Shown here: positions 15,501 to 47,029 of the stretch, piece after piece
Layout of the letters: every line of letters starts with the position of its first letter
How positions within the stretch are numbered: position 1 is the first letter of the stretch
Assembly: GCA_030619885.1 (NCBI GenBank)
Contig: JAUXAN010000001.1
Location: 11,474-75,473 of the forward strand
Source: a bacterium
Lineage (GTDB): Bacteria; Hydrothermota; DG-26; JAUXAN01
Direction of reading: 5' to 3'
DNA length: 64,000 bases
Notes under the pieces: model-generated
What the model saw: the letters and a program-made list of their open reading frames with translations, nothing else
Database searches by the model: none
What the model was told of the DNA's origin: nothing
Made by a program: the position numbers and the translations under genes

Positions 15501-16744
15501 AGTCGAAAAGTTTTTCCATCCACCAGACCAACAGCAACAACGCCAAAGCCTAGGCTCTTACTCACAGAAGAAGCGATTGTATTCAAGATCTCGTCTATAT
15601 TTATATCGGAAACGATGGTATTTCCAACCTTCACCATCTCTTCAAGCAAATTTGCTTTTTCTTCTATCACCTTCCCTTGGTGCAAAATCTGTTCCAAATA
15701 TCTTGCATTCTCCATGGCGATAGCCGCCTGCTCAGATAAGGCAACAAGAAAATCTCTGTCTTCCTCACTGAATCCGTCCAATCTTTCTGATTCGAGATTT
15801 ATCACACCCAATACATCTTCCTTACCCTTCACAGGCACACAGAGTTCTGATCTTGTCTCTTTTCTTCTAATAAGATACCTACTATCTTTCGTAACATCAG
15901 GGACGAGAATAGGTTTTCCCGTTCGCACCGTCGCACCAACTATTCCTTTTGTAATCGATAACCCTTTTCTTTCGAGTCTGTCCACATCATTCAATCTACT
16001 CCCCTGGTAGGAGTGTAAAAACAGTCTCTTCTTCTCTTTATCATACCTTAGAAAGGCTGATGATACAGTACCGGGAACCATCGAATGGGTGGTGGAGAGG
16101 GTGAATCTTATGACCCTCTCGATGTCGAATGTGGTGGTGAACTGTTTTGTAATGTTGGTTAAGGATGCAAGCCTCCAGTCGACTGTCATAATCTTTCTCT
16201 TCAACTTTTCGGTTCCCCGAAATATGAGATGCACTATATTGAAAGTGATGAAAAAGAAGGCAATCCGTAAGCAGAGCGGGAATACAGTATCTGAAGAAAA
16301 GCCATTTTGAAACCCCACGATTAAAAGATATAACACAGCAGCCAAGAAGGTGACCAAGAGGCATCCTTTATATTTTCTGTAGACACTATTAAATGCGATG
16401 ACTACTAAATAGAGCAAGAAGAAATCGGATTCGATGCCACCCAGGGAATAGACGAATATAGAGATGAGGCAGAGATCGAAGCCATTGTCTACAGATAGAG
16501 GAAAATCGAAGAATAACTTATAGGTGTTGCCCCTGATGAGACCGTATCTGAGCAAAATGTGTGTGATGATATTGTATCCTGCCATTATGGCAAAGAGGGT
16601 ATAGATAATATTGAGATTGGCTATCTCTGTCCGTTTAAGAAGAATCAATCCAAAACAGACCGTCCAGGTCATCCACCTTATGTAAATAGCGGTTATCCTG
16701 TTGGGGTCTATCTGGCTTTTTCTCATAATCTTTAATTCAGACAC
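12557..16744 (-). CDS. multidomain sensor histidine kinase (N-terminal multi-TM sensor, at least 4 GAF domains, PAS, HisKA, HATPase_c)
   Basis: It is 1395 aa. There are about 6 N-terminal TM helices and repeated GAF signatures (GIVGATVRTGKPILVPDV; GAVGKVIRTGKPMLIPDT; GLVGSAAETGKSVFVNDI; GIVGWVYREGKSSLVNDT). The H-box is FAHELQNVLSGIIG, and the C-terminus has the G-boxes of an ATPase. Confidence 0.85.
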   Translation of the reverse strand: MSELKIMRKSQIDPNRITAIYIRWMTWTVCFGLILLKRTEIANLNIIYTLFAIMAGYNIITHILLRYGLIRGNTYKLFFDFPLSVDNGFDLCLISIFVYSLGGIESDFFLLYLVVIAFNSVYRKYKGCLLVTFLAAVLYLLIVGFQNGFSSDTVFPLCLRIAFFFITFNIVHLIFRGTEKLKRKIMTVDWRLASLTNITKQFTTTFDIERVIRFTLSTTHSMVPGTVSSAFLRYDKEKKRLFLHSYQGSRLNDVDRLERKGLSITKGIVGATVRTGKPILVPDVTKDSRYLIRRKETRSELCVPVKGKEDVLGVINLESERLDGFSEEDRDFLVALSEQAAIAMENARYLEQILHQGKVIEEKANLLEEMVKVGNTIVSDINIDEILNTIASSVSKSLGFGVVAVGLVDGKTFRLKGFSGVSEDVAKKLSSKETSLAKMKSLMRDEFKISNSFFISHKYKLWEKSKKEGKAHIPPVEKIEAKGRWHPEDTLVVPLKRKDGKLVGMIQVDSPINGNIPDESEVKLLELFANQGSVAIQNAQLFSQIKKEATQLSIQYKLSKDIVSTIELNDLLKSTVYDLAQTMGYHTCGIILFDRKTDEWYVSPGYYPDEHSGWVNSRFKISDGAVGKVIRTGKPMLIPDTRKEKGYIAGPFHTRSEMIVPLITKTEVIGAINVENKILDAFTEEDIDFLSGLAGPLAIAIENAELFKKNQQRIVSLSAAYTSGLLITQTEDRKKLVEKFVETTKVYLDYYYVGFFELEDSELVMKGYTGAEGVEPVNLKIEVGKGLVGSAAETGKSVFVNDINKDARYVEGIKNVGAEMAVPVKTAEKLLGVLDIGARRKDGFSSEDLYLAELIAKEFAVAYENANLLSKVRERAERLAMINEVGRDVLAMLDIDKLFSKSVEIIQKRFGYGYAEILIPNFERKELVVVANVGKRPYSLEKGYRQKFSDGIVGWVYREGKSSLVNDTRLEPRYLEVTGAEALSELTVPIKIDGRVEAILDVGNPQPNSFTEEDRVTMETIADQLAIAMKNALLYEQIRDTALHLETMVNEATADLVARNKALQLLHQHQETIIQHMPTGLLSTTEDGEISVFNKTAEAITGYREKEVVGKDIEEVFGLDVKEVLIDQLLFERKITGEEIELPKKDGTKIPIGYSTATVSDEKGEKEYIVMFRDLSAVRKLEQQLLEREKLAAVGKTASTFAHELQNVLSGIIGSTELLAFKFKKNKKAKEIADTLIEESTRVSGLIEELLTFTHPMKLDLSISSFHKTIVHALNICVRGIEKNRVRVVKKFNPQIKDFVYDKEKIGDVFAKLIENSVQAMKNSGTLTITTDINSDGDIVVDITDTGDGIAEENIAKIFSPFFTTRLKRVGLGLAVAKRILDLHEWDIEAESKVG

Positions 16745-16928
16745 TGATTATTATCTCAGGATTCGTTGCGCAGCATCCCATACGGGTCTGCGACCGTATG
16801 GAATGGACAGATATTCACTGATCGAATATTCCCTTTTTATCTGCTCCTATTATCTTTTCCGTAATGTCGCTATGTTTATAATCTGTGCTCATCTATGTTA
16901 ATCAGTGTCTACTATCTGAATCATAGTT
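16734..16928 (+). repeat. intergenic repeat family Rep-A, copy 2 (full-length, forward)
   Basis: It fills the gap between two minus-strand genes. It shares head AATTCAGACACTGATTA, the palindromic core and tail CTACTATCTGAATCATAG with the other copies. Confidence 0.8.
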
Positions 16929-19747: not shown

Positions 19748-19981
19748 CTATGCTTTACATTGTATCAAAAAAATGATTATAGTCAAGCAAAAATTAATCA
19801 CAGAGGACACAGATTACCTTCTCACCAAATACCTCGTCTTCCTTGACCAAAACTTGTGTAATTGATACAATGGAAAACGGAGGAGAGAATTGGGAAGAGG
19901 ATGGATTGGAGAGAAAAAAAAAGTATTTTCGTATCAAGCATCTTAAAATCAATTATTAGTTAGCTGAGTTGTCACATTCTA

Positions 19982-20612
19982 TCATTGGACAGTAGGTTTT
20001 TTACGAATTACTGAATTTGTTTCATCAATTTCGAGATCTTCAAAAACTGTAGGAGCATGTTTCTTTAATATTTCGAGAATCTCTATTGCAATTTTCCGAA
20101 TTTCCCACTGTGCTTCAGGACTGCCTCGGAGCTCAGCAATATGACGCCATTCCCTGAAATTTGCAGTGACAACGATTTCGCTTTCAACTGCATTAGGCAG
20201 AACAAATCTTGCGTCTTGATTCTCAATTCCTAATCTTTGAAGCTCATGATAGGTTTTTTTTGAAATGCTCAATAAGATTGAGAAACATCTTATGTGCTTG
20301 TTTATTTCCTTTAATTGAGTCAGGTTCAACATACTCAAAATTGCTTTCATTAACGTACCGCTGAGACTGCTGAGTGTAGGAACAAAGTCTGTGTCTGACC
20401 AATTGATGTGTGAATGCTCTTGAGCCTCCTTTAATCCTAAAAGTTGCATAGGCATGTTCTAAGACGTAAAGGTGTCCACTTTTGATAAGCATTTTTATAA
20501 ATTTCTTTTCACTGCCTTTCTTCTGTTTTTCAAATGATAAATAAGCAGTCCTGCCAACATTTTCTATCAATTTTTCTGCATTTGGGGTAATAGAAAGCAA
20601 CTCTACTTTCAT
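19982..20612 (-). pseudogene. thyX: flavin-dependent thymidylate synthase ThyX, interrupted by a 1-nt frameshift in an A8 homopolymer (20254-20261)
   Basis: The N-terminal frame (20244..20612) carries the ThyX signature LVRHRLCSYTQQSQRY. The C-terminal frame (19982..20455) continues YHELQRLGIENQDARFVLPNA...AQWEIRKIA. The two frames switch at the T8/A8 run. Confidence 0.8.
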
Positions 20613-20621
20613 TTTAAAATC

Positions 20622-21509
20622 TCACAATTTGAATCTTTTCACTTCTTGAATTCCTTTACTTAACCACCCGCTGAATTTATCAGGAAACGAATAAACAACT
20701 TGAACATCTGGGTTTTCTTCACAAGCAAGGTACAGTCCGACTGTCTGAAGTTTAGTGTTTAGCGGTGATGTTATTATATTATAGTCGTGTGCATTCTCAT
20801 TAAAAATGCTCCTGAGTATCTGTACAGCTTTATGGGGATCATCCGCAGGTGCTTTTTTAATCTCCGCTCCGTAAATTGAATCGCTTAATTCCTTAACAGC
20901 TTTTCTGTTTCTCTCTAAGAAACTTGCATCGGTAGGCTCCTCCCCTTGAACTAGGATTACCTTGGACGGTTCTATTACTTTAAAAAGATACAGTGGTCTG
21001 TCAATCTCATATCCTATCAGAAGAATGAGCAGTTTTTCTTTATCTTTAGAAAATATGCCGCCGAAGAAAGGGATAGTAGAAAAACCTTTTGCGCCTTTCG
21101 ATATTTTAGGATTGTATTTTCCAGGGACTGTGTAAAATACGTCTAATGATTTGACGCAGTATTTCTTCCTGAGCAACCACATTAAAACAAGTAAATTTTG
21201 TCTGTTGAAGTTTGAAACATCCAAAAAGAACTTTGAGGATTTAATATCCAACTTCTTATCAAACACATACCGATTGAAGCCACGCACAATTTCAAATGGA
21301 TCATAGTATGAAGCTTTTAGAAATTGAAATTTTTTTGCTTGCAGAAACTTACTTGCGATCTCATTACGGATATTTACTACTCGTTGATCATTTTCAAATT
21401 CTTGGTTTATAAATAATATATGATCGTCAATTTTAAAATCCCATTTCTCTTTAAAAAAACCCAGGCCTCTTTCTTCAAGACCAATCATCGAGATAAATAT
21501 GTTGCTCAT
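20622..21509 (-). CDS. hypothetical protein (295 aa), third gene of the candidate defence module; no recognisable motifs
   Basis: The ORF starts with ATG 11 nt after the upstream stop. It lies in a tight operon with the NTPase and HD genes. No domain is identifiable by eye. Confidence 0.6.
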   Translation of the reverse strand: MSNIFISMIGLEERGLGFFKEKWDFKIDDHILFINQEFENDQRVVNIRNEIASKFLQAKKFQFLKASYYDPFEIVRGFNRYVFDKKLDIKSSKFFLDVSNFNRQNLLVLMWLLRKKYCVKSLDVFYTVPGKYNPKISKGAKGFSTIPFFGGIFSKDKEKLLILLIGYEIDRPLYLFKVIEPSKVILVQGEEPTDASFLERNRKAVKELSDSIYGAEIKKAPADDPHKAVQILRSIFNENAHDYNIITSPLNTKLQTVGLYLACEENPDVQVVYSFPDKFSGWLSKGIQEVKRFKL

Positions 21510-21520
21510 TTCTTCACTCT

Positions 21521-23401
21521 TTACATATCAAATAGAGGTAGTTGCTTTTCTTCTTTTTCAGCGATTTTTTGTCTTCTTTTAAACCAAGAAACGAATTTTT
21601 TTGGGTTGTCCAATGCGAGAAAAAGATGTTCCTGAGAAATTTCGATTCTGCCTTGGAATCCTGAAAGATCAAGTTTGTATCGCGGACACAATCTCTTATT
21701 TAGAATGAAACATTCAAGCATTTCATAACCCGATTTGCCGCGGTACCATTTTTTGTGAAAAAAGCATTCTCTCAGAGCTTTGTGCAGAATTCTTTCTAAT
21801 CGGGAATCTCTTAATGTCTCTTTTACTGAAAAAGAAATAATCCTTGGATACCGGCTGTTTTTGTTATCAAGCCTAATTTTAAAAGCCTGACCCAATGCTT
21901 CTATTAAATTGAAAAGTTCTTCCAGAAGTTTTCGTTCTTCAGATTCAGTTGCTCTTCTTCTGATGGGCTGCAGTATTTCTGTATCAATAAAGCTGTTTGA
22001 GTAGAATTTCACTGCATTCTTCTGCATTTCAAACGGAATAAATTCTATGTCTCTATTACTTATCTCGGAATCCTTTTGCCTATATTCAATAACCATATGA
22101 AAACAAGCATCCAAAAATGCTCGTGTGATTCCTGAAGAAAAATGCACAAGATTATCAAACCCTGTATAGCCGTATTCTGTTTTCTCCAAGAATTTTTGGA
22201 AAAATCTTGCTCTTGCATACTTATTGATGTAATTTTGCTTACTTCCTATCTTTTTGTCTTCCGGAAGCTTGTCATACTCGTCAGCCGTATATTGTATTGC
22301 CTTTTTCATTTTGTTTATTTCGGTTAGGTTTTCTGGAAGAAACTCTACAATATTATTGACTTTCCATTGTGCTATTTCAAGCCTCCTATTTGCTATTTGC
22401 TTGATTCTGCGGTAATAATTTTCTTGGTTATTCGTATATAGGCTGTCCAAATTCACGACATAGTAATCATGTATTTCTTCAATTGCTCTGCCATTAATGT
22501 CGACATCTGTACTATATGATTCGTGGCACGCGGAGACTTTTGTACACACAAGATTCTGAACTCTCTGAGAAATAAAGGTATTGATGATTTGCTGATGAAA
22601 CTTAATAATAGGCTCGATTCCTTCAATTTCAGTAACCTCATCGAAAAGCAAAAAGAATGGTGTGTCGGCCACACCTATAAGCTTGCGCAGTTCATCGAAA
22701 AAGGTATAAAGAAAGCTCCCACTTTGGCAAGATGGATCTGTAAAGTTCCCTGTATATTTTAGGCGATTGCTGGGAGTACCATAGTTTGATTGATAATCCT
22801 GAATGGAAGAAAGAGTTTTATTTTTTTCTTTTTTCATTATGCCTTTCAGTGTTTTTAGATTCCTTTCCTTTTCAGGAATGTCATCATATATCTTTTTCTT
22901 ATCCAATGCTGAAATTACTTTACTCACAGCTTCTTTTTCTTTATCAGATATTATTTTCTGCTTGAGCTGCCCCAGAATAGTATTTAATGTCCAGTCCGCA
23001 ATATCCATGATGAAATAGTGCATAATTATTCTTTTAGAAACATTAAGAGGAACCTCCTTGTCAGCTAATAATTTACAAAATTCTGTTTTCGTGTAATCAC
23101 CTGTATTGTAGCCTATACATATACCAATGAAGGAATCTGGCTGATTGAAGAATTTCTCCAGACTGCCGTATTCTATGACTTGGCAGGCAGGTTCAAGAAA
23201 CTTGAACAACATTGTCTTCCCAGAACCCCTACTGCCAAATACAAATGTATGTGTGTAAGCGGTCAGCGCGTTGTATTCTGTATACTCCTTGACGAAGAGG
23301 TCGACGATGTTCTTTGGACTCAACTGCTGGTCTGGATAGAAATGCTGAAATACGTTCTCTTTAATCTTCGTCTCAAATTTATCCTGTTTTTCTTCATTCA
23401 T
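21521..23401 (-). CDS. P-loop NTPase (626 aa), ABC/AAA_21-like spacing of Walker A and B; candidate defence ATPase
   Basis: Walker A FGSRGSGKTM lies near residue 55. Walker B FFLLFDEVTE lies near residue 248, followed by a possible H-loop histidine. The C-terminal ~370 aa are uncharacterised. The ATG directly abuts the upstream TAA (TAAATG). Confidence 0.7.
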   Translation of the reverse strand: MNEEKQDKFETKIKENVFQHFYPDQQLSPKNIVDLFVKEYTEYNALTAYTHTFVFGSRGSGKTMLFKFLEPACQVIEYGSLEKFFNQPDSFIGICIGYNTGDYTKTEFCKLLADKEVPLNVSKRIIMHYFIMDIADWTLNTILGQLKQKIISDKEKEAVSKVISALDKKKIYDDIPEKERNLKTLKGIMKKEKNKTLSSIQDYQSNYGTPSNRLKYTGNFTDPSCQSGSFLYTFFDELRKLIGVADTPFFLLFDEVTEIEGIEPIIKFHQQIINTFISQRVQNLVCTKVSACHESYSTDVDINGRAIEEIHDYYVVNLDSLYTNNQENYYRRIKQIANRRLEIAQWKVNNIVEFLPENLTEINKMKKAIQYTADEYDKLPEDKKIGSKQNYINKYARARFFQKFLEKTEYGYTGFDNLVHFSSGITRAFLDACFHMVIEYRQKDSEISNRDIEFIPFEMQKNAVKFYSNSFIDTEILQPIRRRATESEERKLLEELFNLIEALGQAFKIRLDNKNSRYPRIISFSVKETLRDSRLERILHKALRECFFHKKWYRGKSGYEMLECFILNKRLCPRYKLDLSGFQGRIEISQEHLFLALDNPKKFVSWFKRRQKIAEKEEKQLPLFDM

Positions 23402-24394
23402 TTATGTCCTCCTCGGCCTATATTTCTCAAGTGTTGTTCTAACACCATTATCGCCAAAAAATTCATTATATTCATTGCGGTCATCGAAAACGAAACTAAT
23501 CTTATCTATCGCGCTCTCTCCATCGTAAATGTCTATGCATAAATCAATACCGTCGATCATACGGAAATAGAAGGTATCTGTTAAGAAGTTATTGCAGTAT
23601 TTTCTCTCTTGATTGATTTTGTCTATACGTCTTACATATTCTTCAATTCCTTTGGTTGTCATAGAATTCTTCCCCCAATCAGCCCAAATCTCATTTTTCT
23701 CGAATTTCGCAGATATCTTGATTTTTAGAGACGTCTCGGTTCTACCTCCATAAGTGCGTTGGTTATACAAGAGGCCGATGGATTGATTCATTATACAAAA
23801 CTTCCAGTAAGCTTCATATTGCTTGGGAACGTTAGAAATCATTCTTTCTTCAACTCGTCTGGAGTCTTCTTCGAGTTCATCGGAAATCCTGAGGAGAGCA
23901 GCTAAAAACCGTGGGTATAGAATTTTGTTATGAACAAGCACCTTTTCTCTATCGATTGCGAGGCTGATTGCATCTCTACCAGAGTGAGCTTCTGCAATTT
24001 TCACAATCCATTCTGCATAGTATTCATCGTAAAGGAAGTTTTTCACTGGGTCAAAGATATACTTTATGTTTTTCTCATGTCCTACACGCTGACCGTAGAT
24101 ATTCCCTATATCATGCCATAGAGAAGCATTCATCAAAAGATTTAGATTTGTTAGATCTATGGTTCTTTCTTTGGATACATTTTCGAGTGGGAGATGGGGC
24201 TTAAGCAAATCGTATAGTTTCTCCAATATCCGGGTCACGTGTCCGATACCATGATCAGTTCTGTACGGCAATGCATCGCGTGTAAAAGGAAAATAGGATT
24301 TCTCTAATCTTGACCTAACAGTTGCGTATACGTGCCAATGTTCAGGGGCTTCGGATTCACACATTCTTCTAAATTCACCATCTAAGTCATTCAT
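23402..24394 (-). CDS. HD-domain metal-dependent phosphohydrolase (330 aa) with uncharacterised C-terminal half
   Basis: The HD signature H..H/HD/H/D is present: HGIGHVTRILE, LWHDIGN, EAHSG and RISDELE. The start overlaps the upstream methyltransferase gene by 8 nt. Confidence 0.75.
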   Translation of the reverse strand: MNDLDGEFRRMCESEAPEHWHVYATVRSRLEKSYFPFTRDALPYRTDHGIGHVTRILEKLYDLLKPHLPLENVSKERTIDLTNLNLLMNASLWHDIGNIYGQRVGHEKNIKYIFDPVKNFLYDEYYAEWIVKIAEAHSGRDAISLAIDREKVLVHNKILYPRFLAALLRISDELEEDSRRVEERMISNVPKQYEAYWKFCIMNQSIGLLYNQRTYGGRTETSLKIKISAKFEKNEIWADWGKNSMTTKGIEEYVRRIDKINQERKYCNNFLTDTFYFRMIDGIDLCIDIYDGESAIDKISFVFDDRNEYNEFFGDNGVRTTLEKYRPRRT

Positions 24395-25583
24395 ACTGAT
24401 CCCTCAGTGAGTTCAAAATCCCTACTGCAATTCTCTGCCCTAAGATCGGCGGCACAGCATTTGCTACTTGTTGTTGTTGGTAACCAAGTGGACCGTAGAA
24501 AATATAGCAGTCAGGAAAAGATTGAAGCCGTGCTGCTTCTCTTACAGACAAACCTCTGTCTTGGACAGGATGGATAAGCATGCACTTCCTAAAATTACTT
24601 ATAACTATTGAAGGCTCGTCCCACTTTAGCCTCTTATATATTCCGCTGTGGCAGTTATTTTTGTTTTTATAGTTCTTCATTAGATAGCATGGAATATTTT
24701 CCCAGTTTCCACCCTGCGGGATAAATCGATATCGTTTGAGCACAAGATTAGTATTCTTGCTTACAAGGTTATTCCCGCAGTATGAGTTCCCCCAATTGGC
24801 ACGCATTCTTTTCTGGTAATCAGTTAAAGAGCCGTTAGACTTTGCATATCTCATAAGGTCCGTTTGATTTCCATTTTCAAGCACCGGAAGATCTGAAATC
24901 GCTTCCTTAACTGTAATGCAAGATCTTTTCCCATCACCGTGAGTTGCATTTGAGAAGATGTAGTCCGCACCAATTCTGTTTCCTATTATAAAGATTCTGC
25001 GCCGAATTTGAGGAATTCCGTAGTCAGCGGCATTTAATATTTTAGATTTGCAAAAGTATCCCACATTTTCTAACTCCCCAATTATCGCATTTTTTACCAA
25101 GCCGCCTTTAAAGCTATTCATGCCAGCAACATTTTCCAGCAACAACCACTTAGGCATTAAACCCTTTATTAATCTAATAAATTCTTTATACAAGTGATTT
25201 TCAGAATTGTCAAGAGTACGAGTCCGCATGTTTGAAGTTGAAAACCCTTGACACGGCAGACCACCCATTACAATATCAATTTTTCCTCTCTTAACTCTCA
25301 GTATCCTTAATATTTCTAAGGGATTCAACTCTGCAATGTCTTTCACTAAAACCATCTTTTTTTTGCTTCTCCTATTTTTTATGTAAGTTTCAGCACTGCA
25401 GAGCTCTTTTTCTACAGCAAGTAAAACTTGGAATCCTGCTTCTTCAAAACCTAAAGAAAGCCCTCCTGCTCCAGCACAGATATCAACTGCAGTTGGTTTG
25501 TCCTTTCCCTTTTTCACCTTGGCTTCTCCTTTTCTTTTGAGTGAGTATCCGCATAAGACTTGCATATTGAAATAATAGGGCAT
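24387..25583 (-). CDS. DNA (cytosine-5)-methyltransferase
   Basis: Motif I is DICAGAGGLS, motif IV GGLPCQGFS, motif VI ENV, motif VIII QIRRRIFIIG and motif X REAARLQSFPD. The true start may be the ATG 6 codons downstream. The gene overlaps the 3' end of the upstream glycosylase gene. Confidence 0.9.
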   Translation of the reverse strand: MPYYFNMQVLCGYSLKRKGEAKVKKGKDKPTAVDICAGAGGLSLGFEEAGFQVLLAVEKELCSAETYIKNRRSKKKMVLVKDIAELNPLEILRILRVKRGKIDIVMGGLPCQGFSTSNMRTRTLDNSENHLYKEFIRLIKGLMPKWLLLENVAGMNSFKGGLVKNAIIGELENVGYFCKSKILNAADYGIPQIRRRIFIIGNRIGADYIFSNATHGDGKRSCITVKEAISDLPVLENGNQTDLMRYAKSNGSLTDYQKRMRANWGNSYCGNNLVSKNTNLVLKRYRFIPQGGNWENIPCYLMKNYKNKNNCHSGIYKRLKWDEPSIVISNFRKCMLIHPVQDRGLSVREAARLQSFPDCYIFYGPLGYQQQQVANAVPPILGQRIAVGILNSLRDQYE

Positions 25584-26212
25584 TCACTACATAATGGATG
25601 TCTTTTTTTACAGATTAGTGCACTGAAGTCTAACAGTGCCCAGTTAAACTTTTTGGGATTTCTTTGGGGTACAAGTTTTGATGCGGCATCCCACAATAAC
25701 TTGTCATTTCTTGGTCGATTCTTCTCAGACTTGATGCCAAACACCCTATCAAGCACCCTTATAACATTTGTATCTACAATAGGCACCCTTTTATTGAAAC
25801 CAAAGCATAAGGTTGCTGAGGCAATGTATTTTCCTATTCCTTTGAGTCTTAAAAGTGCTTTTTCCTCATCTGGTATACTCCCTTTATACTGGTTGAGTAT
25901 CTGTGAACCCATTTCTGTTAATCTCGATGCTTTATAATGCAAACCTAATGGTCTAATTGCTTCCCTCACTGCAGGAACATCCGCATCTGAAAGCTTTTCT
26001 GGAGTTGGACAGTAGGTCGTCAGTTTTTTATAAACTGGTTGTACTTTTTCTACATTCGTTTTCTGAAGGAGCACTTCAGCAAGCAAAATCTTGAATGGAT
26101 CTTTTTCTCTTCTCCAAGGAAAGTCTCTGTTGTTATTTTTATACCACATAAAAAGTTTCTTCTGGAATTCCCTTATCTTATTTAACTCGACTTTTGTTTC
26201 TATCTTAAGCAT
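25514..26212 (-). CDS. HhH-GPD DNA glycosylase with 4Fe-4S cluster (EndoIII/MutY family; Mig-like T:G mismatch glycosylase paired with the C5-MTase)
   Basis: The helix-hairpin-helix LLRLKGIGKYIASATL, the VDTNVIRVLDR element and the C-terminal Cys4 cluster CKKRHPLCSECPIISIC are present. Confidence 0.8.
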   Translation of the reverse strand: MLKIETKVELNKIREFQKKLFMWYKNNNRDFPWRREKDPFKILLAEVLLQKTNVEKVQPVYKKLTTYCPTPEKLSDADVPAVREAIRPLGLHYKASRLTEMGSQILNQYKGSIPDEEKALLRLKGIGKYIASATLCFGFNKRVPIVDTNVIRVLDRVFGIKSEKNRPRNDKLLWDAASKLVPQRNPKKFNWALLDFSALICKKRHPLCSECPIISICKSYADTHSKEKEKPR

Positions 26213-26219
26213 TATTCAG

Positions 26220-26468
26220 TCAGTGTTTTCCCATCCCTAAAATCCAATCCCTCTTCACTACCCCATTTCTTATAGCAGAGGAGCGACTTATTGAATAGGA
26301 ACGGATTATGTTGGCAAATGTAAAGTTTTTTTTGAAGCCTATCCTTTCCCCCTGAAGCATTAAAGACTTTGGCGTAGACACTAAAATCCTTTGATAATAA
26401 CTTCCATTTATCTCAATTTTGCTTCCGGGGTTCAAAACCTTGTGCGTATCCTTTGATATTGTTTCCAT
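26220..26468 (-). CDS. small hypothetical protein (82 aa)
   Basis: It is first in the operon and ends 8 nt before the glycosylase start. No motif is recognised. Confidence 0.4.
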   Translation of the reverse strand: METISKDTHKVLNPGSKIEINGSYYQRILVSTPKSLMLQGERIGFKKNFTFANIIRSYSISRSSAIRNGVVKRDWILGMGKH

Positions 26469-26637
26469 ATCCTTGAAAAGCTTATAAATAGTATAAACTT
26501 TTTTTTACTTTTGTCAAGTATTTTTTGCGAAAAAAATTCGGTTGCGCATATTCTGATCTGATTTCAGAAATTCAAATTTAACAATAGTTTAGATACAAGT
26601 GCGGAACTTGGTTTTTTTGAAGCAATAAAATCAATCA

Positions 26638-29496
26638 TTATCTTTCTATAATTTTGATTTCTTCCTCTGTCAAGCCATAGAGTTTATAGGCGAGGGAGTC
26701 TATTTGCTGATCAAGGAGGTCTATCTGAGTCTTATACAACTTTTTGTCCTGCTCCAATCTGGCAGAATGATATTTTTTCTGCAACTCCAACATTTGCTCC
26801 ACCATTGCCACCAAATCATCGTGCATCTTCTTCTCGTGAGGATTGGAAAAATCAATGGTGTGAATGGGGAGTTGCTCAATCTGATAGCCTTTAATCTTGG
26901 GAAAGGTTTGCTTAGTATCACTGCTCGTTTTTAGAAAATAGAAAGCAATAAGTGAAGAGGTAAGTATCCCAAGCAGGTATTTGGGTGAGTATACTTCACT
27001 TGTTTTAGGGAGGAGCAAATAGATTGACTGGTCTGCATAGAAACCTTCTTGATCAAGGGAACAATAGATTCTTTTGCCCATTACTTGACGAATCAATAAT
27101 TTTGGAAAAATCTGAAAAATCCATTCTTCCCTGAATGCCTGACTACTATACTTACTTTCCAGTTTTTTATCATAACAAACCCACAGATTATTCCAGTTAA
27201 TATGGAAAGGCACTATATTTCTACCAAGAAGAAATTTATGGTAACGATTATCTTCGTAATCACTTGAACATAACTCCTTACGAATTTTCATTCCATTTCG
27301 TACTTTAACCAAATTAGAAAGCTTTGTACTTACTGTTGAAATCTTCTGGATAAGAGCAATCGCCTGAGTATCAATGGCTGTATTGAAAGTAAAACTATTT
27401 TGAGAGGTCAGATACTTTTGAGGCAGGATATTGTGTGGAGTTGTGACTTGTTGTTGCTGTGCTGCCAAGCACATGCCTATTGCAAAATTATGATTATGTC
27501 TTATGGTTTGGCTTTTTTCTCTTTGGACTACAATTATATTTGTGTCCACAGCAACATTTTTGAAAATACCTTCTTTTAAATCAACAATTATTTCTATGCA
27601 GGTATTCTCTACTATGAACTGCCGAATCTTTTCGCTGTCTTTATTGGTTAATATGCCATTAGGAATGATGAAGGAAAGACGCCCACTGTCGCGGAGTAAT
27701 TTAATCCCTTTCTCTAAGAAAAGATAATAAGTATCAAGAAGACGACTTGCTGAAAAGAAATGCTGCATATAATAGGTCTTGTCATTTTGTGGAATATTAC
27801 GACTTCTTACATACGGTGGATTTCCTATTACTACATCAAATCCACCGTTCTGAAAAATGTTAGGGAAGGCAGTTTTCCAGTCAAAAACATTAATGCGTCT
27901 CATCTCGGCTTCATCAAAAAGAGTTGTTTGCTGTGTGTCGTAAAAATCGGGACTAATCAGGGAGTTTCCACATTTGATATTGTTTGATAGATCGGGCAAG
28001 AGCTTCAACTGAGTATATCTGAATAGCTGTCTGGTTGACTCCTCAGTTTCTCCCTCTAAAAGTTTGAGAAGGAGAGAAAGTTTAGATACCTCCACTGCCT
28101 GAGTATCTATGTCCACTCCAAATATATTATTGAGAAGAATTCGCTGTTTCTCTGCAATAGTTAATTGAAAACTATCTTTTTCTGTTTGTATAATTTGACC
28201 TTTCTTTAATGCCTTCTTGCGATTTTCATTTTTGGAATACCAGTCCAGGTGATAGTTCAAGAGACATTGATAGGCACTGAGAAGAAAACTTCCTGAGCCG
28301 CAGGCAGGGTCAAGGAGCTTTATCTTATCAATCTGTTTTGGCGTTTTGCCTTTTATAATTTTTCCGACAGTGTTTTTAACAATATAGTCAACGATGTATT
28401 TGGGGGTATAATACACACCTCCCGCCTTTTTTACTTCAGGCTTTTCTTCTACCTTCACCTGATGAGCAGGGGTTAGACGAATGGTCTTGCCCAGAAATTG
28501 TTCGTAGATGTTTCCAAGAATCTCTACATCTAAAACAGAAAATTCATAAGGGGATTCTGGATAGTATACGGATTTTAGAATTTCCTTTATTATTTCATCG
28601 TCAATGGAAAGAACTGGGGTAATCTCGTCTTTTTCAAAATCAAACAATCCGCTGTTATATTTTTTGTCGGAGTGAAGGAATATCTCCATCAATCTTCTGT
28701 ATGTGTTGGTTCCGTTTAGGAGTATCTTAAGTTTCCCGTAGTCCTCAATCTGTCTGGCTTCTGCTATACGCAGGAATATAATTCTATCAACAATTTTCTG
28801 GACAGCAAAATTCAATTCATACAAGGACAAACTCTTATTCCGAAGGGCGATATTCTTTGCAAGTTTCTCCCTCCACCTATCAATAAGTTTCAAAAATTCT
28901 TTATCTACCTCTGATGTGCCCCTTTTATTCTTGGTTGACTCTATATATCGGTCAAAACTGCCTATTAGAATGCCCTCTTTTGAGAATGTATCATATATGA
29001 AATCAAAATTTTCGAGATAATCTTTATATCCACAGTAGAAAATGCGGACACAGGAAGCCAAATCCTTTGCTGTGGGTTTAATTCTTGTGTCATACACGGA
29101 GAATTCCTCAAAGTCTGTAAGAATAGAGAGGGGTAATTTGGCAGTGTAGGCATACCGCCTTAACTGGTATGCAGGCGATACTTCGGACTTGAGGACAATA
29201 GATGGTCTTTTTGCCTCCACGAAGAACTTTCGTATCCCACCGATACGGAAGGAGTAATCGGGCGCCTTATGCTTGCCTGTAATAATAACCTTTGCCTCTC
29301 TTACAACCTCACGATACTGCTCGGCATAACCCTGTTTGTTAGCAACATCCCAGCCCAGGCTTTCAAAGAATGGGTCTATAAAATCGGCACGGGTATTTGC
29401 CTCATCGTAATCCCGCCTTTTGTATTGAGAGATATTTTCTCCAAACCTCTGTATCAACTTTTTAATCTGTCCTTTTGCTTCTATTTTCTTGTCCAT
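26638..29496 (-). CDS. Type IIG/IIL restriction-modification enzyme (MmeI-like fused endonuclease + N6-adenine methyltransferase + TRD)
   Basis: The N-terminus has ANTRADFIDPFFESLGW and PDYSF...FVEAKR (a PD-ExK endonuclease). The MTase has motif I LDPACGSGSFLL and motif IV VIGNPPYV. At 952 aa it is comparable to MmeI-family enzymes. Confidence 0.85.
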   Translation of the reverse strand: MDKKIEAKGQIKKLIQRFGENISQYKRRDYDEANTRADFIDPFFESLGWDVANKQGYAEQYREVVREAKVIITGKHKAPDYSFRIGGIRKFFVEAKRPSIVLKSEVSPAYQLRRYAYTAKLPLSILTDFEEFSVYDTRIKPTAKDLASCVRIFYCGYKDYLENFDFIYDTFSKEGILIGSFDRYIESTKNKRGTSEVDKEFLKLIDRWREKLAKNIALRNKSLSLYELNFAVQKIVDRIIFLRIAEARQIEDYGKLKILLNGTNTYRRLMEIFLHSDKKYNSGLFDFEKDEITPVLSIDDEIIKEILKSVYYPESPYEFSVLDVEILGNIYEQFLGKTIRLTPAHQVKVEEKPEVKKAGGVYYTPKYIVDYIVKNTVGKIIKGKTPKQIDKIKLLDPACGSGSFLLSAYQCLLNYHLDWYSKNENRKKALKKGQIIQTEKDSFQLTIAEKQRILLNNIFGVDIDTQAVEVSKLSLLLKLLEGETEESTRQLFRYTQLKLLPDLSNNIKCGNSLISPDFYDTQQTTLFDEAEMRRINVFDWKTAFPNIFQNGGFDVVIGNPPYVRSRNIPQNDKTYYMQHFFSASRLLDTYYLFLEKGIKLLRDSGRLSFIIPNGILTNKDSEKIRQFIVENTCIEIIVDLKEGIFKNVAVDTNIIVVQREKSQTIRHNHNFAIGMCLAAQQQQVTTPHNILPQKYLTSQNSFTFNTAIDTQAIALIQKISTVSTKLSNLVKVRNGMKIRKELCSSDYEDNRYHKFLLGRNIVPFHINWNNLWVCYDKKLESKYSSQAFREEWIFQIFPKLLIRQVMGKRIYCSLDQEGFYADQSIYLLLPKTSEVYSPKYLLGILTSSLIAFYFLKTSSDTKQTFPKIKGYQIEQLPIHTIDFSNPHEKKMHDDLVAMVEQMLELQKKYHSARLEQDKKLYKTQIDLLDQQIDSLAYKLYGLTEEEIKIIER

Positions 29497-29754
29497 CTCT
29501 ATATTTTTTCCTTATTAGAATTTTTACCTATCTTAATTCATCTATCTTTAAAAAATCAATATTTCAAAACCACAATCGCAAGGCTGAAGCCTTGCCCTAC
29601 AATAATTCGGCAGATTCCGTGTATTATTTGGGATAAATATAATAATTTAGTTTCAGAAGTCAAGTTTTTTTCTTGAGATCTGGGTGGAACATATGTAATA
29701 CTATTCAGCAGAAGGGGGTGGAGAGATGAAGTATAATGAAAGAGGTGTAAACGC

Positions 29755-30504
29755 CTAGAGCCTCCCTTCCAATATAACTCCATATCCTTTAATTCTTAGA
29801 TATATAAAAAGAGTTACAAGCAGACCAAAGGAGAAAAAAATAAGATAGTCCCAAAATCGTAGTTTAGAATCTATATAATAGGTTCTGTGAGGAGTAAAAC
29901 CCTTTCCTTCTAAAGCCATACTAAGATTGTCGGTATTCCTTATTGCAGAGACGAATATAGGTATGATGAGTGGGACATATTTTTTCACCCTTTTTATTAT
30001 GTTACCACTCTCCAAATCGAGACCTCTTGACCGTTGTGCCTGAACTACCGTGCTGGTAGTGCCAAGAAATGTAGGAACTAATCTGAAAGCCATGGAAAGG
30101 GCAAAACTAATTGGGTAAGGTAGACCAAATTTCTTCAATCCCCAACATAATTCTTCAATCATAGTTGTAGATAAAAATAGGATTCCTGCCACTATCATCA
30201 CATCAAGTCTTATTCCCATTCCGATGCCATAAAGTACCGATTTTAGTCCTCTTCTCAAAAAAAGTGGCCAGAGCACACTGCAAAATAGAAAAAGCAGGAT
30301 AATTACAAGTCTAAATTTAAAGATGTTTATCATTGATTTAGAAAGGATGACAGCTGTTATGATAAATAAGAATAGTGTCAATAGATATACTGGATGGTTA
30401 AAACTCATACTAATGATAAAAATTGAAAGCAGTCCAAAAATTTTTGTTCTTGGATCCATACGGTGAATTACAGTCTTTTTATTTGTGTATAAAAAAAGTC
30501 CCAT
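29755..30504 (-). CDS. ecfT: ECF transporter transmembrane (T) component, EcfT/CbiQ family
   Basis: It has 5 to 6 TM helices and CbiQ-like sequence (RMDPRTKIFGLLSIFIISM). It lies next to the duplicated ABC ATPase. Confidence 0.75.
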   Translation of the reverse strand: MGLFLYTNKKTVIHRMDPRTKIFGLLSIFIISMSFNHPVYLLTLFLFIITAVILSKSMINIFKFRLVIILLFLFCSVLWPLFLRRGLKSVLYGIGMGIRLDVMIVAGILFLSTTMIEELCWGLKKFGLPYPISFALSMAFRLVPTFLGTTSTVVQAQRSRGLDLESGNIIKRVKKYVPLIIPIFVSAIRNTDNLSMALEGKGFTPHRTYYIDSKLRFWDYLIFFSFGLLVTLFIYLRIKGYGVILEGRL

Positions 30505-30507
30505 AGT

Positions 30508-32151
30508 TCAGTTCAGACATTTTTTCAACTCTTCAACTGAGAGAAAAGTTTTCCCAAGCAGTCTGGAGAATCTTGTGATTTGAGGTGGTTTGAGTTTAGT
30601 ACTTCTGAGCAAATCTTCTTTAGAAAATACTTCTCTCGTCTTACCATCTAAGACTACCCTTCCACTATCCATCACCACGACCCTGCTCGAGTATTCACAG
30701 ACTACCCACATTGAATGTGTGATGATTATAATTGTATATCCTGCTCTATTTAGCTTCGTTAAAAGATTCATCATCGAGCGTGTCTCATAATAATCAAGAC
30801 CTGTTGTTGGTTCATCTAAAATTAAGATAGAAGGTCGTGATGCTAAAATTGATGCAACTGCTACTTTTTGCCTCTCACCTTTCGTTAGAGAGAAAGGGTC
30901 AAAGGTCTCATACCCTTCGAGTCCAACAGATTGAAGTGATTCTTTAACCCCGAGTTCGAGTTCCTCTTTTGGAACTCCAAAATTTCTTGGGCCGAAAGAG
31001 ACCTCATCTTTAACTGTCTCTGCAAAGAGTTGGTGATCTGGATTCTGAAATACATAACCTACCTCTCTCGCCAGATTCGACCTCTTCCACTGACTTATAT
31101 CTACACCATTTATTTTAATCTCTCCCCTATCTGGAAGCAAAAGACCATTAAGATGCTTTGCAAATGTTGTCTTGCCTGAACCGTTCTGTCCCACTATTGC
31201 TACAAACTCTCCTTTTCTAATAGTGAGGCTAATTTTCTCAATTGAAAATTGTGGTCCGTAAGAGTATGTAAGATCTTTTATTTCGAGAACAGGTCTGCCA
31301 TAGGACTTTTTATGCTTTAAATTTTCATACAACTTATCAGAAATAGAAAATCTCTTTTTCTTAAAGAGGTCTATACCTTCTTTAATAGAGAAGACAGGTT
31401 CATTTTTAAATAATCTGCATAAATCAAGTGGTCTCACACCGTTTTTTTCTAATAGTTCTACATCAGAGAGTAAATCTTTCGGACTACCATCTGCAACAAT
31501 CTTTCCTCCATTCATTATGAGCATTCTATCGGCATTTAAAATCTCTTCTGTCTCGTGTTCAACAAAAATCAGAGTATGATTCTTCTTCAATTCTTTTGTA
31601 ATTGTAAATATCTTCTCTTTCCCTGCCGGGTCCAAGTCTGTTGTTGGCTCATCCATCACTATTATCTCAGGAGAACCTGATAGGATAGATGCTATTGCTA
31701 CCAACTGTTTTTCACCTCCAGAGAGGAGAGCAGGGTTTCTATCTCTATATTTAGAGAGACCAACAAGAGAAAGAGAACTCTCTATTCTACTTTCTATCTC
31801 TTTTTTTGAAAAGTTAAAGTTCTCTGGAGTGAAAGCAACTTCCAGTTCTACATTGGTAGAAAAGAGTTGCGAATCAAAGTCCTGAAAGACAACTCCAACT
31901 TTTTTTGCCAATTCAGAAACTTTATTATTTTTTACATCTTTATTTAAGACCGAGACAGAGCCACGAAACTCGCCTTTTAAAAATTTTGGAATCAACCCAT
32001 TCAAACTGAGACAGAGAGATGATTTACCAGCGCCACTCTTTCCAGTTATGACAACAAATTCTCCTTTGGGTATGGAGAGAATAATACCATTAAGTGCTTC
32101 AGTTCCATCTTTATATTTAAAATTGAGGTCTGTGATTTCGACTGCTTTCAT
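30508..32151 (-). CDS. ECF transporter ATPase, fused EcfA1-EcfA2 (two ABC cassettes)
   Basis: There are two Walker A sites (GKSGAGKSSL; GQNGSGKTTF), two signatures (LSGGEKQLVAIA; LTKGERQKVAVA) and two Walker B sites (IIVMDEPT; ILILDEPT). Confidence 0.9.
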   Translation of the reverse strand: MKAVEITDLNFKYKDGTEALNGIILSIPKGEFVVITGKSGAGKSSLCLSLNGLIPKFLKGEFRGSVSVLNKDVKNNKVSELAKKVGVVFQDFDSQLFSTNVELEVAFTPENFNFSKKEIESRIESSLSLVGLSKYRDRNPALLSGGEKQLVAIASILSGSPEIIVMDEPTTDLDPAGKEKIFTITKELKKNHTLIFVEHETEEILNADRMLIMNGGKIVADGSPKDLLSDVELLEKNGVRPLDLCRLFKNEPVFSIKEGIDLFKKKRFSISDKLYENLKHKKSYGRPVLEIKDLTYSYGPQFSIEKISLTIRKGEFVAIVGQNGSGKTTFAKHLNGLLLPDRGEIKINGVDISQWKRSNLAREVGYVFQNPDHQLFAETVKDEVSFGPRNFGVPKEELELGVKESLQSVGLEGYETFDPFSLTKGERQKVAVASILASRPSILILDEPTTGLDYYETRSMMNLLTKLNRAGYTIIIITHSMWVVCEYSSRVVVMDSGRVVLDGKTREVFSKEDLLRSTKLKPPQITRFSRLLGKTFLSVEELKKCLN

Positions 32152-33033: not shown

Positions 33034-34446
33034 TTATTCCTTCTCACTGAATACTTCGGCGGAGAAGATGTAGAGTTCGGTCTCTTTATCTTTCCATTCA
33101 TCAGGAGATAAACCTGCTTTGTGTGAACAGAGATTGGATAGGAATTCTTCTTTCGTCCAACCGGTCTCTGTCGCTACTTGCGGCAGGAAGACACCTTGAT
33201 TATATCCCCGCTTAACAATCACTCCATGCTTTCCTAAAACGATCTCTTCAACCTTTGCACGGACAGGAACGGTTAAAACAGAAATCTCAATCTCTATTTT
33301 CTTCAGTTCCTCTTCAGTAACAGAAGGAAATCGCGGATCAGCGGTTGAAGATTGTACCGCCATATCCGGGACAGCCTGATATAGAGGTTTTATAGGCTGA
33401 ATATAACCAATACATCCACGCAGTTGCCCGTCCTTCTTTAATGTAACAAATACTCCCCTCTCCTCTTCTAATGTTTTTGTCAGTGGGGTAAATTTTGGAA
33501 TAGGCTTCCCTTTGATTTTATGCTCAATGGTTTCCCTCGCTATTCTGATCAGTTCTTTTTTTTCCTCTTCAGACAGCCCTTCGGATGTTCCCCCATTATG
33601 CATTGTTTTCGATTCTGATTTGTAGATACAGAAAGAAGAGTAGCCAACCACATATCCGCCCTTGCTTCCTGCCACATCAGCAGAGTTGGTATATCTGAGC
33701 AGTTTTGCACTCTCTGCGCCCAATTTGCGACATGCAAACAGGAGTGAGATGATTGGACCACCACCACAGGCCTGGGATTCCGATGTAGCAAGTGCACGGA
33801 GTAAACCATCAGGGTCCATCTTTTTAATGTAGGAAAGTGTGCGTTTGTCCGTTTTCACGCATTCTTCGTATAAGTCACCATGGTAGAGGTCAGAACTCGC
33901 CAAAATCAATACATCCTTATCCTTTGCAACATTCGCTATTGCATCACCTAATATTTTGCAGTTTTGTTCATTCTGTTCACACATCATAACAGGAACTATC
34001 TTCGCATTAGGTTTTACCCTCTGTAAGAAAGGGATTTGCACCTCGATAGAATGTTCTCCTATGTGAGGAGATGGATCCGCTCTAATCGCTTTGTTTTGAA
34101 CGATCAAGTCTTTGGCAAGTTTTTTGTCAATATCTACAGTCCCCAGTGGTGTCTCCCATCCCCCTTTATCGTAGACTGCAAGCCCCTCAAAATATGCACG
34201 ATGAGAAGGGCCTATCAATATAACGGCATCTACGGTCTCATCTTCAATTTGCTTAAAAGAACGGGCTGCTACAGCACCTGAATATGGGTATCCAGCATGT
34301 GGACAGATAATACCAACTATCTTCCCTTCGATCTCCTCCTTTTTTGCCGATTCCAAAAAACCATCCACTTCTTTCTGCAGTTCATTAAGATTGCCCGGAT
34401 AAAATTTACCCGCCACTGCGGGACGCCGAATGTTTCCTTTATCCAT
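33034..34446 (-). CDS. fusion protein: Memo1-like (AmmeMemoRadiSam system protein B) + AMMECR1 (protein A) domains
   Basis: The Memo part has AGKFYPGN, ICPHAGYPYSG and LIGPSH. The AMMECR1 part has LRGCIGYIQP. The start is chosen at the internal ATG (34444-34446), preceded by AAAGGAGGATAAG; the longer ORF from 34533 would add a hydrophobic N-terminus and overlap rpsH. Confidence 0.75.
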   Translation of the reverse strand: MDKGNIRRPAVAGKFYPGNLNELQKEVDGFLESAKKEEIEGKIVGIICPHAGYPYSGAVAARSFKQIEDETVDAVILIGPSHRAYFEGLAVYDKGGWETPLGTVDIDKKLAKDLIVQNKAIRADPSPHIGEHSIEVQIPFLQRVKPNAKIVPVMMCEQNEQNCKILGDAIANVAKDKDVLILASSDLYHGDLYEECVKTDKRTLSYIKKMDPDGLLRALATSESQACGGGPIISLLFACRKLGAESAKLLRYTNSADVAGSKGGYVVGYSSFCIYKSESKTMHNGGTSEGLSEEEKKELIRIARETIEHKIKGKPIPKFTPLTKTLEEERGVFVTLKKDGQLRGCIGYIQPIKPLYQAVPDMAVQSSTADPRFPSVTEEELKKIEIEISVLTVPVRAKVEEIVLGKHGVIVKRGYNQGVFLPQVATETGWTKEEFLSNLCSHKAGLSPDEWKDKETELYIFSAEVFSEKE

Positions 34447-34517
34447 CTTATCCTCCTTTTTGGGATTTGTGCAAAAGAGTACAAACAGAAGGAGAGGCAG
34501 AAAAAGTTTCATCCTTA

Positions 34518-34916: not shown

Positions 34917-34937
34917 ATAAACCTCCTTGCCCTTTTT

Positions 34938-35123: not shown

Positions 35124-35132
35124 AGTCTAATC

Positions 35133-35765: not shown

Positions 35766-35767
35766 AA

Positions 35768-36450: not shown

Positions 36451-36462
36451 CTAACATCCTAT

Positions 36463-46954: not shown

Positions 46955-47029
<75 letters not shown>

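Follow-up and report, generated by a model that had tools for sequence, protein, structure and literature searches.

The window analysed here is a stretch of 64,000 nucleotides from a bacterium of the phylum Hydrothermota (contig JAUXAN010000001.1 of assembly GCA_030619885.1). It carries an island of 9,952 bp (19804..29755, a feature without strand), delimited by blastn breakpoints, junction sequences and guanine-plus-cytosine (GC) content. The first-pass annotation of this DNA, made from the letters and a list of open reading frames (ORFs), had described the interval as a defence island on a single strand, holding a Type IIG restriction-modification (RM) enzyme, the cytosine methyltransferase Dcm, a Mig-like glycosylase, an HD protein, an ATPase, an unknown protein and a disrupted thyX gene. 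Family searches confirm this inventory, and every island ORF of at least 80 aa with family support indeed lies on the minus strand. The remaining genes, taken at that time for separate defence genes, instead form one conserved operon, with the Type IIG enzyme alone independent of it. On balance, we regard the island as an acquired islet with two systems: the Type IIG enzyme (system A) and a seven-gene operon linked to cytosine methylation, for whose products we propose roles below (system B, hereafter also the cassette).

The operon and its gene products

The genes of system B follow each other in the order small ORF, Mig-like HhH-GPD glycosylase, Dcm, HD-CE protein, ATPase, CARF protein and ThyX, and from the small ORF to thyX neighbouring genes either overlap or sit no more than 11 nt apart. 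Gene calls and tblastn place the genes for Dcm, HD-CE, ATPase and CARF protein next to each other in every one of the 17 lineages examined, while the identity of the ATPase to that of the window falls from 82% to ~25%. These lineages comprise chromosomal contigs, six IMG/VR contigs and three alphaproteobacterial plasmids (Rhizobium leguminosarum pRLG201, Agrobacterium salinitolerans pDG3-1c and Yoonia pSS15). In the homologue searches, relatives of the ATPase, the HD-CE protein and CARF6-like proteins likewise fall on the same contigs. Judged from this comparison, ~6.5 kb of the island represent a single conserved mobile operon, and the cassette very likely acts as one functional unit.

The gene at 23402..24394 (minus strand) encodes a 330-aa HD-superfamily phosphohydrolase of the HD-CE family (PF24391, 7e-13). 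Residues H48, H52, H94-D95, H106, H137 and D172 are invariant in 31 sequences. The AlphaFold2 (AF2) model, with a predicted local distance difference test (pLDDT) score of 91, consists of a helical HD domain and a C-terminal beta-rich domain. Foldseek against the PDB returned weak generic HD matches (PPX/GppA, a tRNA-processing enzyme, SAMHD1, phosphodiesterases and HD-GYP). The protein thus combines the H...HD...H...D metal ligands of the HD superfamily with the helical HD fold, the latter seen in the model and in these weak matches, and HD-CE is a distinct HD family.

The next gene (21521..23401, minus strand) codes for an ORC/Cdc6-like AAA+ ATPase of 626 aa, which matches PF24389 (2e-64) over its full length (residues 25-587). 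Walker A reads G56-S-R-G-S-G-K62 and Walker B D254-E255; across 30 sequences, neither GSRGSGK nor DE varies. A word-indexed search found few homologues (72 clusters), and an exhaustive profile search enlarged the family to 355, 1,078 and 2,234 clusters of 50% identity at E values up to 1e-30, 1e-10 and 1e-3, respectively. Protein P0001 of the homologue database is identical to the ATPase of the window. Some members of the family carry an N-terminal HD-CE domain (P0197), a calcineurin-like phosphoesterase (metallophosphatase) or a caspase. Such swappable N-terminal effectors are a pattern typical of NTPases of conflict systems, which points to HD-CE as the predicted effector of the cassette. 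Plasmid searches for the fused ATPase variants returned only the same three plasmids.

Between the ATPase and thyX lies the gene for a stand-alone tandem-CARF (SAVED-like) protein of 295 aa (20622..21509, minus strand). It is hit by ten PADLOC CARF6 models (best 2e-38) and has a weak Pfam match to HFX_2341_N. Its AF2 model (pLDDT 94) shows two Rossmann-like halves, which hhalign identifies as homologous over 130 aligned columns. In Foldseek the model matches the CARF domains of Can2, Cam1, Csm6, Card1 and Csa3 (probability 1.0, root-mean-square deviation 2-4 A) and, over the full length, SAVED proteins (Cap5, SAVED-CHAT and 3TM-SAVED). The structural matches and the homology of the halves indicate a tandem-CARF pseudo-dimer without a fused effector. 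After beta-4 the protein contains D97-x-S99-xxx-R103, and a D-x-S-xxx-R at this position is what we take to be the CARF signature. The protein is predicted to be a sensor of a nucleotide ligand. A viral scan with the CARF alignment gave no match, and sequence searches for the CARF protein, HD-CE and the ATPase returned no relative in the PDB.

The front end of the operon is devoted to cytosine methylation. Dcm (24387..25583, minus strand) is a C5-cytosine DNA methyltransferase of 398 aa (PF00145, 2e-60; TIGR00675; PADLOC MTase_II, 1e-110) and is present in all 17 lineages; its catalytic and specificity part can be exchanged. Upstream of it, 25514..26212 (minus strand) encodes a 232-aa HhH-GPD glycosylase of the MutY/Nth/Mig-like type with a 4Fe-4S Cys cluster (PF00730, 1e-19). 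This protein matches the PADLOC model 'Type II nicking endonuclease' (5e-45), a class that covers Vsr-type repair partners, and its MutY/Nth-like NCBIfam matches, including TIGR01084 (mutY), remain below cutoff. It is predicted to be the repair partner of Dcm for T:G mismatches, i.e., for deaminated 5-methylcytosine (5mC). Besides the matches to PF00145, TIGR00675 and PF00730, this pairing finds support in relatives, where the glycosylase is fused to Dcm or substituted by Vsr. The window and the related locus L008 have a separate HhH-GPD protein; in L010-14, L022 and L027-30 it is fused to Dcm; L019, L018, L024 and L035 have Vsr in its place; and in still other cases such a partner is absent. 

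In the window, the ORFs of glycosylase and Dcm share 70 nt, read in different frames (25514-25583), compared with 52 nt in L008, and elsewhere the two form a single fused protein of 591-599 aa. As the split is kept in both the window and L008, it is not an assembly error. DNA homology to L010 and L013 begins only at 24581, covering the HD-to-thyX genes and the last ~65 codons of Dcm, which indicates that the methylase/glycosylase front end has been exchanged independently. Heading the operon, 7 nt upstream of the glycosylase gene, is a small ORF of 82 aa (orf82; 26220..26468, minus strand). A 49%-identical ORF occupies the same position in L008, and orf82 has no family match in Pfam, PADLOC, NCBIfam and PHROG searches. 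A pattern scan revealed a promoter-like site upstream of it (TTGACA, 16 nt, TATACT; 11/12 positions; 26490..26517, minus strand), which is possibly the promoter of the operon; in promoter and terminator scans of the region, the numbers of sites equal the shuffled expectation.

The last gene, thyX (19982..20612, minus strand), would encode a flavin-dependent thymidylate synthase. It is split into two ORFs (20244-20612 and 19982-20455), both of which match PF02511, by a +1 frameshift at an A8 homopolymer (20254..20261, minus strand) where L008 has A7. Removing one A restores a ThyX of 209 aa with an RHR-X7-S-X-R motif. The repaired protein shares 78-87% identity with the undamaged ThyX of the cassettes in L008-15 and L022; every relative with the gene has an intact copy, and the ThyX of L008 scores over the TIGR02170 cutoff. 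The first-pass annotation had noted a second, tandem ThyX-like gene in the window. This resident gene is confirmed (47553-49010): it encodes a 485-aa tandem, pseudo-dimeric form that matches TIGR02170 in two stretches and keeps the RHR motif only in its C-terminal half (RHR at residue 348). The island ThyX shares only 29-31% identity with it, indicating a xenologue rather than a duplicate.

A thymidylate synthase directly adjoins the core genes in 11 of the 17 lineages. In nine of them it is ThyX (window, L008/9, L010-12, L013-15, L022, L016/17, L018, L024 and L033). In the other two (L027-30 and L031-32), the slot instead holds a ThyA-superfamily protein of 235-239 aa (PF00303), which comes nearest to a short methanogen-type thymidylate synthase model, below cutoff. 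This protein retains its catalytic Cys, RSxD motif, uracil-specifying Asn and H-x-Y motif. Displacement of ThyX by a non-homologous enzyme of the same chemistry, at the same position, suggests that what counts for the system is the reaction itself. This non-orthologous displacement is strong comparative evidence that the predicted function includes synthesis of deoxythymidine monophosphate (dTMP) or a closely related reaction. The island thyX, earlier taken for a redundant copy of phage or mobile origin, is foreign and redundant as proposed; judging from its recurrence in the operon and its intact state in relatives, it is a recurrent component of the system and not an incidental phage remnant. 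The idea that the ThyA-type proteins are specific for deoxycytidine monophosphate was provisionally rejected, the Asn equivalent to E. coli N177 being retained.

Further observations concern the surroundings of the synthase gene. In L010 (7024-8484) and L013 (7712-9172), the opposite strand beside the cassette thyX encodes a Nudix-like protein of 209 aa and a divergent dCTP-deaminase-like protein (PF22769) whose C-terminal tail is hydrophobic; both are further enzymes of pyrimidine-nucleotide metabolism beside the cassette. On Agrobacterium plasmid pDG3-1c (L024, 8748-12794), a convergent operon contains a second Dcm, an unknown protein of 363 aa, vsr and, last, thyX. There, the thymidylate synthase is transcriptionally tied to the Dcm-Vsr pair, not to the ATPase operon.

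The cassette is found in diverse mobile contexts. L018 is a prophage with portal, protease, major head, tail and tape-measure genes, and the cassette sits between its tail genes like a moron. Elsewhere the neighbours include RM, AbiE, AbiTii/DpnII, Gp49/HTH toxin-antitoxin, MvaI/BcnI and Schlafen-like genes. In every host the cassette is AT-rich, with 31-37.5% GC against 39-55% in the flanks. In L022 (8563-10004), HD-CE is interrupted by an IS630-like DDE_3/HTH element. On the Yoonia plasmid, an IS1182 element follows directly after the CARF gene (L023, 8980-10362), and no thymidylate synthase was seen at that locus.

Proposed mechanism and competing explanations

ORC/Cdc6-clade ATPases, among them BrxC and SspC, anchor the modification-based BREX (bacteriophage exclusion) and Ssp systems (PMC12839542, PMC10853773), and a thymidylate-synthase domain is part of a validated E. 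coli defence unit (DefensePredictor, 2026 study; PMC13092281). Together with these two precedents, the RM, abortive-infection and toxin-antitoxin neighbours, the carriage by prophage and plasmids, the deviant GC content in every host, the occasional hits by insertion sequences and the swappable effector N-termini suggest that the cassette is likely a defence system.

How such a system would work can be sketched from the gene products, and we tentatively propose an RM-like mechanism, which we hold to be a possible rather than a probable one. Dcm would mark self DNA and supply sequence recognition, as Mod does in Type III RM systems or PglX in BREX. The Mig-like glycosylase, or Vsr elsewhere, would repair the T:G mismatches that arise from deamination of 5mC and so offset the mutagenic cost of methylation. 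The ORC/Cdc6-like AAA+ ATPase may serve as a DNA-engaging motor or switch, with HD-CE as its effector, either a nuclease or a nucleotide phosphohydrolase. The tandem-CARF protein would gate the system by binding a nucleotide ligand. Finally, the thymidylate synthase could couple the system to the pool of pyrimidine deoxynucleotides, where it would make or remove the sensed nucleotide, or offset the effect of the effector on the supply of dTMP.

Several points weigh against this interpretation. A thymidylate synthase is missing in 6 of the 17 lineages, although some of these loci are truncated or lie beside an insertion sequence. The independent exchange of Dcm fits a specificity subunit and fits a looser association equally well. 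No cyclase (CD-NTase or Cas10 Palm) was found in the island ORFs by Pfam, PADLOC and NCBIfam searches or at the listed related loci. As HD-CE is without a close structural relative, a nuclease and a nucleotide hydrolase are not distinguishable. The neighbourhoods form a small, unsystematic sample. The frameshift in thyX could be an assembly error; if it is real, system B is possibly impaired or partly disabled in the genome of the window. The novelty of the cassette is likewise qualified: a limited literature search by family names and component combinations returned no description of it as a system, and it is apparently undescribed as such, but Pfam already catalogues both the HD-CE (PF24391) and the ORC-CDC6-like (PF24389) families. 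Neither HD-CE nor the ATPase is represented by a model in PADLOC v2, NCBIfam or PHROGs.

A different mechanism would place system B among nucleotide-pool systems of the abortive-infection type. In such a scheme, the CARF protein senses an aberrant pyrimidine nucleotide that arises as a phage takes over the cell, the ATPase activates HD-CE to hydrolyse deoxynucleoside tri- or monophosphates, the synthase makes or clears the signal, and Dcm only protects or marks the carrier. Depletion defences based on dCTP deaminase or dGTPase and nucleotide-signal systems are established concepts, and several features of the cassette are in line with them. The sensor has a CARF/SAVED fold; HD-superfamily dNTPases (SAMHD1) are among the weak structural matches of HD-CE; the thymidylate synthase recurs, with analogous displacement; genes resembling dCTP deaminase and Nudix enzymes adjoin the cassette in L010-14; and a thymidylate-synthase domain has been validated in a defence unit (PMC13092281). 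However, the most invariant partner is Dcm (17 of 17 lineages), whereas the synthase is missing in about a third, and ATPases of the ORC/Cdc6 type are typically bound to DNA. We consider this mechanism rather unlikely, and less so than the others that follow. The absence of a cyclase is unexplained under the RM-like and the nucleotide-pool models alike.

A more speculative proposal, which we put forward as a doubtful one, assigns the signalling or sensing part to the thymidylate synthase itself, with ThyX and the ThyA-type enzyme interchangeable. The enzyme would make, destroy or report a pyrimidine deoxynucleotide that betrays the takeover of nucleotide metabolism by a phage; the tandem-CARF protein would read that nucleotide and license the ATPase and the HD effector, with Dcm protecting self.

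The cassette might, on the other hand, have no immune role and represent a module by which mobile elements maintain or replicate themselves or counter restriction, with an Orc1/Cdc6-type initiator, a self-protective Dcm and ThyX for nucleotide supply, in which case the copy in the window would be the remnant of a decayed element. Orc1/Cdc6 initiators are used by archaeal plasmids and viruses, the cassette occurs on plasmids and in a prophage, and Dcm and ThyX are common phage genes, as the PHROG matches to thymidylate synthase illustrate. Against this stands the rest of the 10-kb island, which is devoid of replication, partition, structural and integrase genes. The L018 copy is placed as a moron, flanked by tail genes and outside the replication module, and neither the CARF sensor nor the HD effector has an obvious replication role. 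The ATPase family, moreover, is fused to caspase, metallophosphatase and HD effectors, as is typical of conflict systems. Taken together, a maintenance module is very unlikely.

Island limits, acquisition and neighbouring genes

One flank of the island consists of an ECF (energy-coupling factor) transporter, a Memo/AMMECR1 gene and a ribosomal cluster; the other begins with the gene for a HEAT-repeat protein of 936 aa, followed by a GAF/PAS histidine kinase. The island had been placed between a kinase locus and an ECF/ribosomal cluster, bounded by housekeeping operons, and its presence there is borne out by two empty sites in close relatives. One is L005, a 10-kb metagenomic contig found via an exact ecfT protein; the other is L025, a 67-kb metagenomic contig reached via an L5 protein in the same 90%-identity cluster as that of the window. 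Both are collinear with the window from the ribosomal cluster through the Memo/AMMECR1 gene, QueT, ecfA and ecfT, and then pass straight into the HEAT-repeat gene, so that ecfT directly abuts the 936-aa gene in each, as the synteny check proposed in the first-pass annotation was to reveal. L025 additionally continues into the GAF kinase. At the nucleotide level, the two flanks of L005 are 99.7-99.8% and 98.5% identical to the window, and those of L025 98.9% and 98.3%.

Homology to both contigs ends at window position 29756, inside the ecfT stop codon, and restarts at 19803 or 19796. The limits claimed earlier (19982-29496) hold as the outer limits of the coding sequences; the actual indel extends from 19804 to 29755. 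In place of the island segment, L005 has 197 bp and L025 179 bp (blastn). These two spacers share 66 bp (94% identical) that are missing from the window, and differ in their left part. The islet is hence of the replacement type: the spacer sequence of 179-197 bp between ecfT and the HEAT-repeat gene was exchanged, not simply interrupted by an insertion. The 197-bp spacer has no copy within the island.

Dispersed intergenic repeats resembling repetitive extragenic palindromes or miniature inverted-repeat transposable elements (REP/MITE-like), ~40-200 bp long and with hairpins such as CCATACGGGTCTGCGACCGTATGG, occur in the window at 9358-9515, 16734-16928, 36464-36665, 38859-38988 and 46872-46923, and in the empty sites at L005 6987-7061 and L025 16116-16181. 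A related piece sits in the ancestral spacer between ecfT and the HEAT-repeat gene and was lost on arrival of the island.

The AT-richness seen by eye is real but modest, with 36.9% GC in the island against 40.6% in the remaining window. Equal-sized windows outside the island have a mean of 40.6% (sd 1.1, minimum 38.8%), and the island lies below all of them. The adjoining core genes are similarly AT-rich (ecfT 34.5% and ecfA 37.2% GC), which means that composition alone is not decisive; the synteny of the two empty sites is. In L008, the block from the IIG gene to thyX recurs at 83-90% nucleotide identity in another chromosomal context. From these comparisons, the island was almost certainly acquired horizontally. 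Direct repeats of the att type, suggested as a feature to search for at the flanks, did not materialize: the borders share no k-mer longer than 10 nt, a length that shuffled sequence also yields. Pfam and PADLOC searches detected no recombinase or integrase domain in any island ORF, and no tRNA gene lies near the island, the only one in the window being at 46955. The most likely route of entry is recombination through the flanks rather than site-specific integration.

The reverse history, an island already present here in the ancestor and later deleted from the lineages of L005 and L025, draws on the comparison of only three genomes without a rooted phylogeny and on the dissimilar left parts of the two empty spacers. 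The 66-bp REP-like sequence common to both empty sites and absent from the window, the deviant GC content of the island, the same block in the unrelated context of L008 and the AT-rich copies of the cassette even in hosts of 50-55% GC all favour gain over loss, which makes a deletion highly improbable.

System A occupies the end of the island next to ecfT. The gene at 26638..29496 (minus strand), assigned by Pfam and PADLOC searches and by motifs in the translation, encodes a single-chain Type IIG/IIL RM enzyme of 952 aa with matches to Eco57I (3e-45), N6_Mtase, TaqI_C, MmeI_Mtase and HSDR_N in Pfam and to REase_MTase_IIG in PADLOC (5e-208). One intact chain combines an N-terminal PD-(D/E)xK nuclease (PD-ExK; PD78...E93-A-K95), a gamma-class N6-adenine methylase (DPACGSG, NPPY) and a TaqI_C-type target-recognition domain. 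Such an enzyme would methylate adenines of the host and cut unmodified DNA. Its homologue in L008 is 65% identical. At both ends the two genes are 82-90% identical in DNA, and they cannot be aligned over 26856-27815 (L008 4068-4994); the unalignable middle part, close to the target-recognition domain, suggests a specificity swap by recombination. Among the loci examined, the IIG gene was seen only in the window and L008, and it is independent of the operon.

The reading implicit in the earlier description, a loose pile of independent defence or mobile genes at a hotspot, can invoke the common mixing of unrelated systems in defence islands, the independent IIG enzyme limited to the window and L008, and the frameshifted thyX of the window, but is largely refuted and hardly credible given that the order and adjacency of the Dcm, HD-CE, ATPase and CARF genes are kept in all 17 lineages, whatever their phylum or replicon type, that their junctions overlap or abut, that HD-CE::ATPase fusions exist and that thyX is intact in relatives.

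The flanking genes themselves display some further features. For the 936-aa protein, a scan of genome contigs found relatives at no more than 33% identity, the best in a metagenome-assembled genome of the Cloacimonadales without synteny. At the QueT/ecfA junction, L005 (4365-4470) has ~105 extra bases relative to window ~32147-32150, and the fused double ECF ATPase is called at 583 aa there, compared with 547 aa in the window and L025. The ribosomal cluster (33034-36500; also in L005 and L025) runs L14, L24, L5, a small S14-like ORF and S8, and S8 is followed by the fused Memo-AMMECR1 gene and the QueT-type ECF transporter rather than L6, L18 and S5. The spc operon thus appears broken after S8.

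Significance and relation to known systems

The island as such is ordinary. Its main content, a compact operon found on phages, plasmids and chromosomal islets across phyla, is not. The operon joins four themes that are usually separate. It couples mismatch repair to C5 methylation and adds an NTPase of the ORC/Cdc6 type whose effectors are swappable, a sensor of the CARF/SAVED type free of a cyclase, and a thymidylate synthase. If defence is confirmed, the cassette would offer a tractable case of CARF-type sensing without a dedicated cyclase, of the recruitment of nucleotide-biosynthesis enzymes to immunity, and of the coupling of methylation-based discrimination to an HD effector. Should the thymidylate synthase prove to be the signalling component, it would stand for a cyclase-free CARF pathway linking DNA methylation, dTMP synthesis and immunity, in a widely mobile and previously unrecognised immune system. 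For annotation, adjoining PF24389 and PF24391 genes are to be read as one system.

Among known systems, the 952-aa enzyme of system A shares the full architecture and motifs of MmeI/Eco57I-type IIG enzymes and shows nothing unusual. The front end of system B resembles the Dcm-Vsr and M.MthTI-Mig pairs, in which a C5-methylase is likewise combined with a T:G mismatch enzyme, here fused in relatives. It differs from them in belonging to a larger conserved operon, of which the pair is just the first part.

Nucleotide-metabolism defences (dCTP deaminase and dGTPase) resemble the cassette in recruiting deoxynucleotide enzymes into immunity, but these depletion systems are single enzymes that act without a methylase, ATPase or CARF protein. 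The DefensePredictor unit with its thymidylate-synthase domain has, as far as the text shows, no ORC, CARF or cytosine-methylase partner (PMC13092281). With the effectors of type III CRISPR-Cas and CBASS (cyclic-oligonucleotide-based antiphage signalling system), such as Csm6, Can2, Card1, Cap4 and Cap5, the cassette shares the tandem CARF (SAVED-like) fold, a D-x-S-xxx-R motif of the CARF type and a sensor gene beside a putative hydrolase. In contrast to these systems, its sensor is not fused to the effector, Cas10 and CD-NTase are absent, and its partners Dcm, AAA+ ATPase and thymidylate synthase are unknown there. Despite the CARF/SAVED sensor, the lack of a cyclase thus places the cassette outside CBASS and type III signalling.

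The closest parallels in overall design are BREX, Ssp and DISARM (defence island system associated with restriction-modification). These systems likewise couple a DNA-modifying enzyme to an ATPase, of the ORC/Cdc6 clade or another large type, and to effector genes; they are mobile, reside in defence islands and presumably discriminate self from non-self by modification. Searches for signature proteins of BREX, DISARM, Druantia and MADS (methylation-associated defence system), namely PglZ/BrxC, DrmABC, DruA-E and MAD1-8, found none, and the PADLOC matches to these systems are to methylases only, which excludes the cassette from membership. Without PglZ, BrxA/B/L, DrmA/B/C and SspABD, the cassette differs from BREX, Ssp and DISARM in having C5-cytosine modification, an HD-CE protein as the predicted effector, a stand-alone tandem-CARF protein and a thymidylate synthase.

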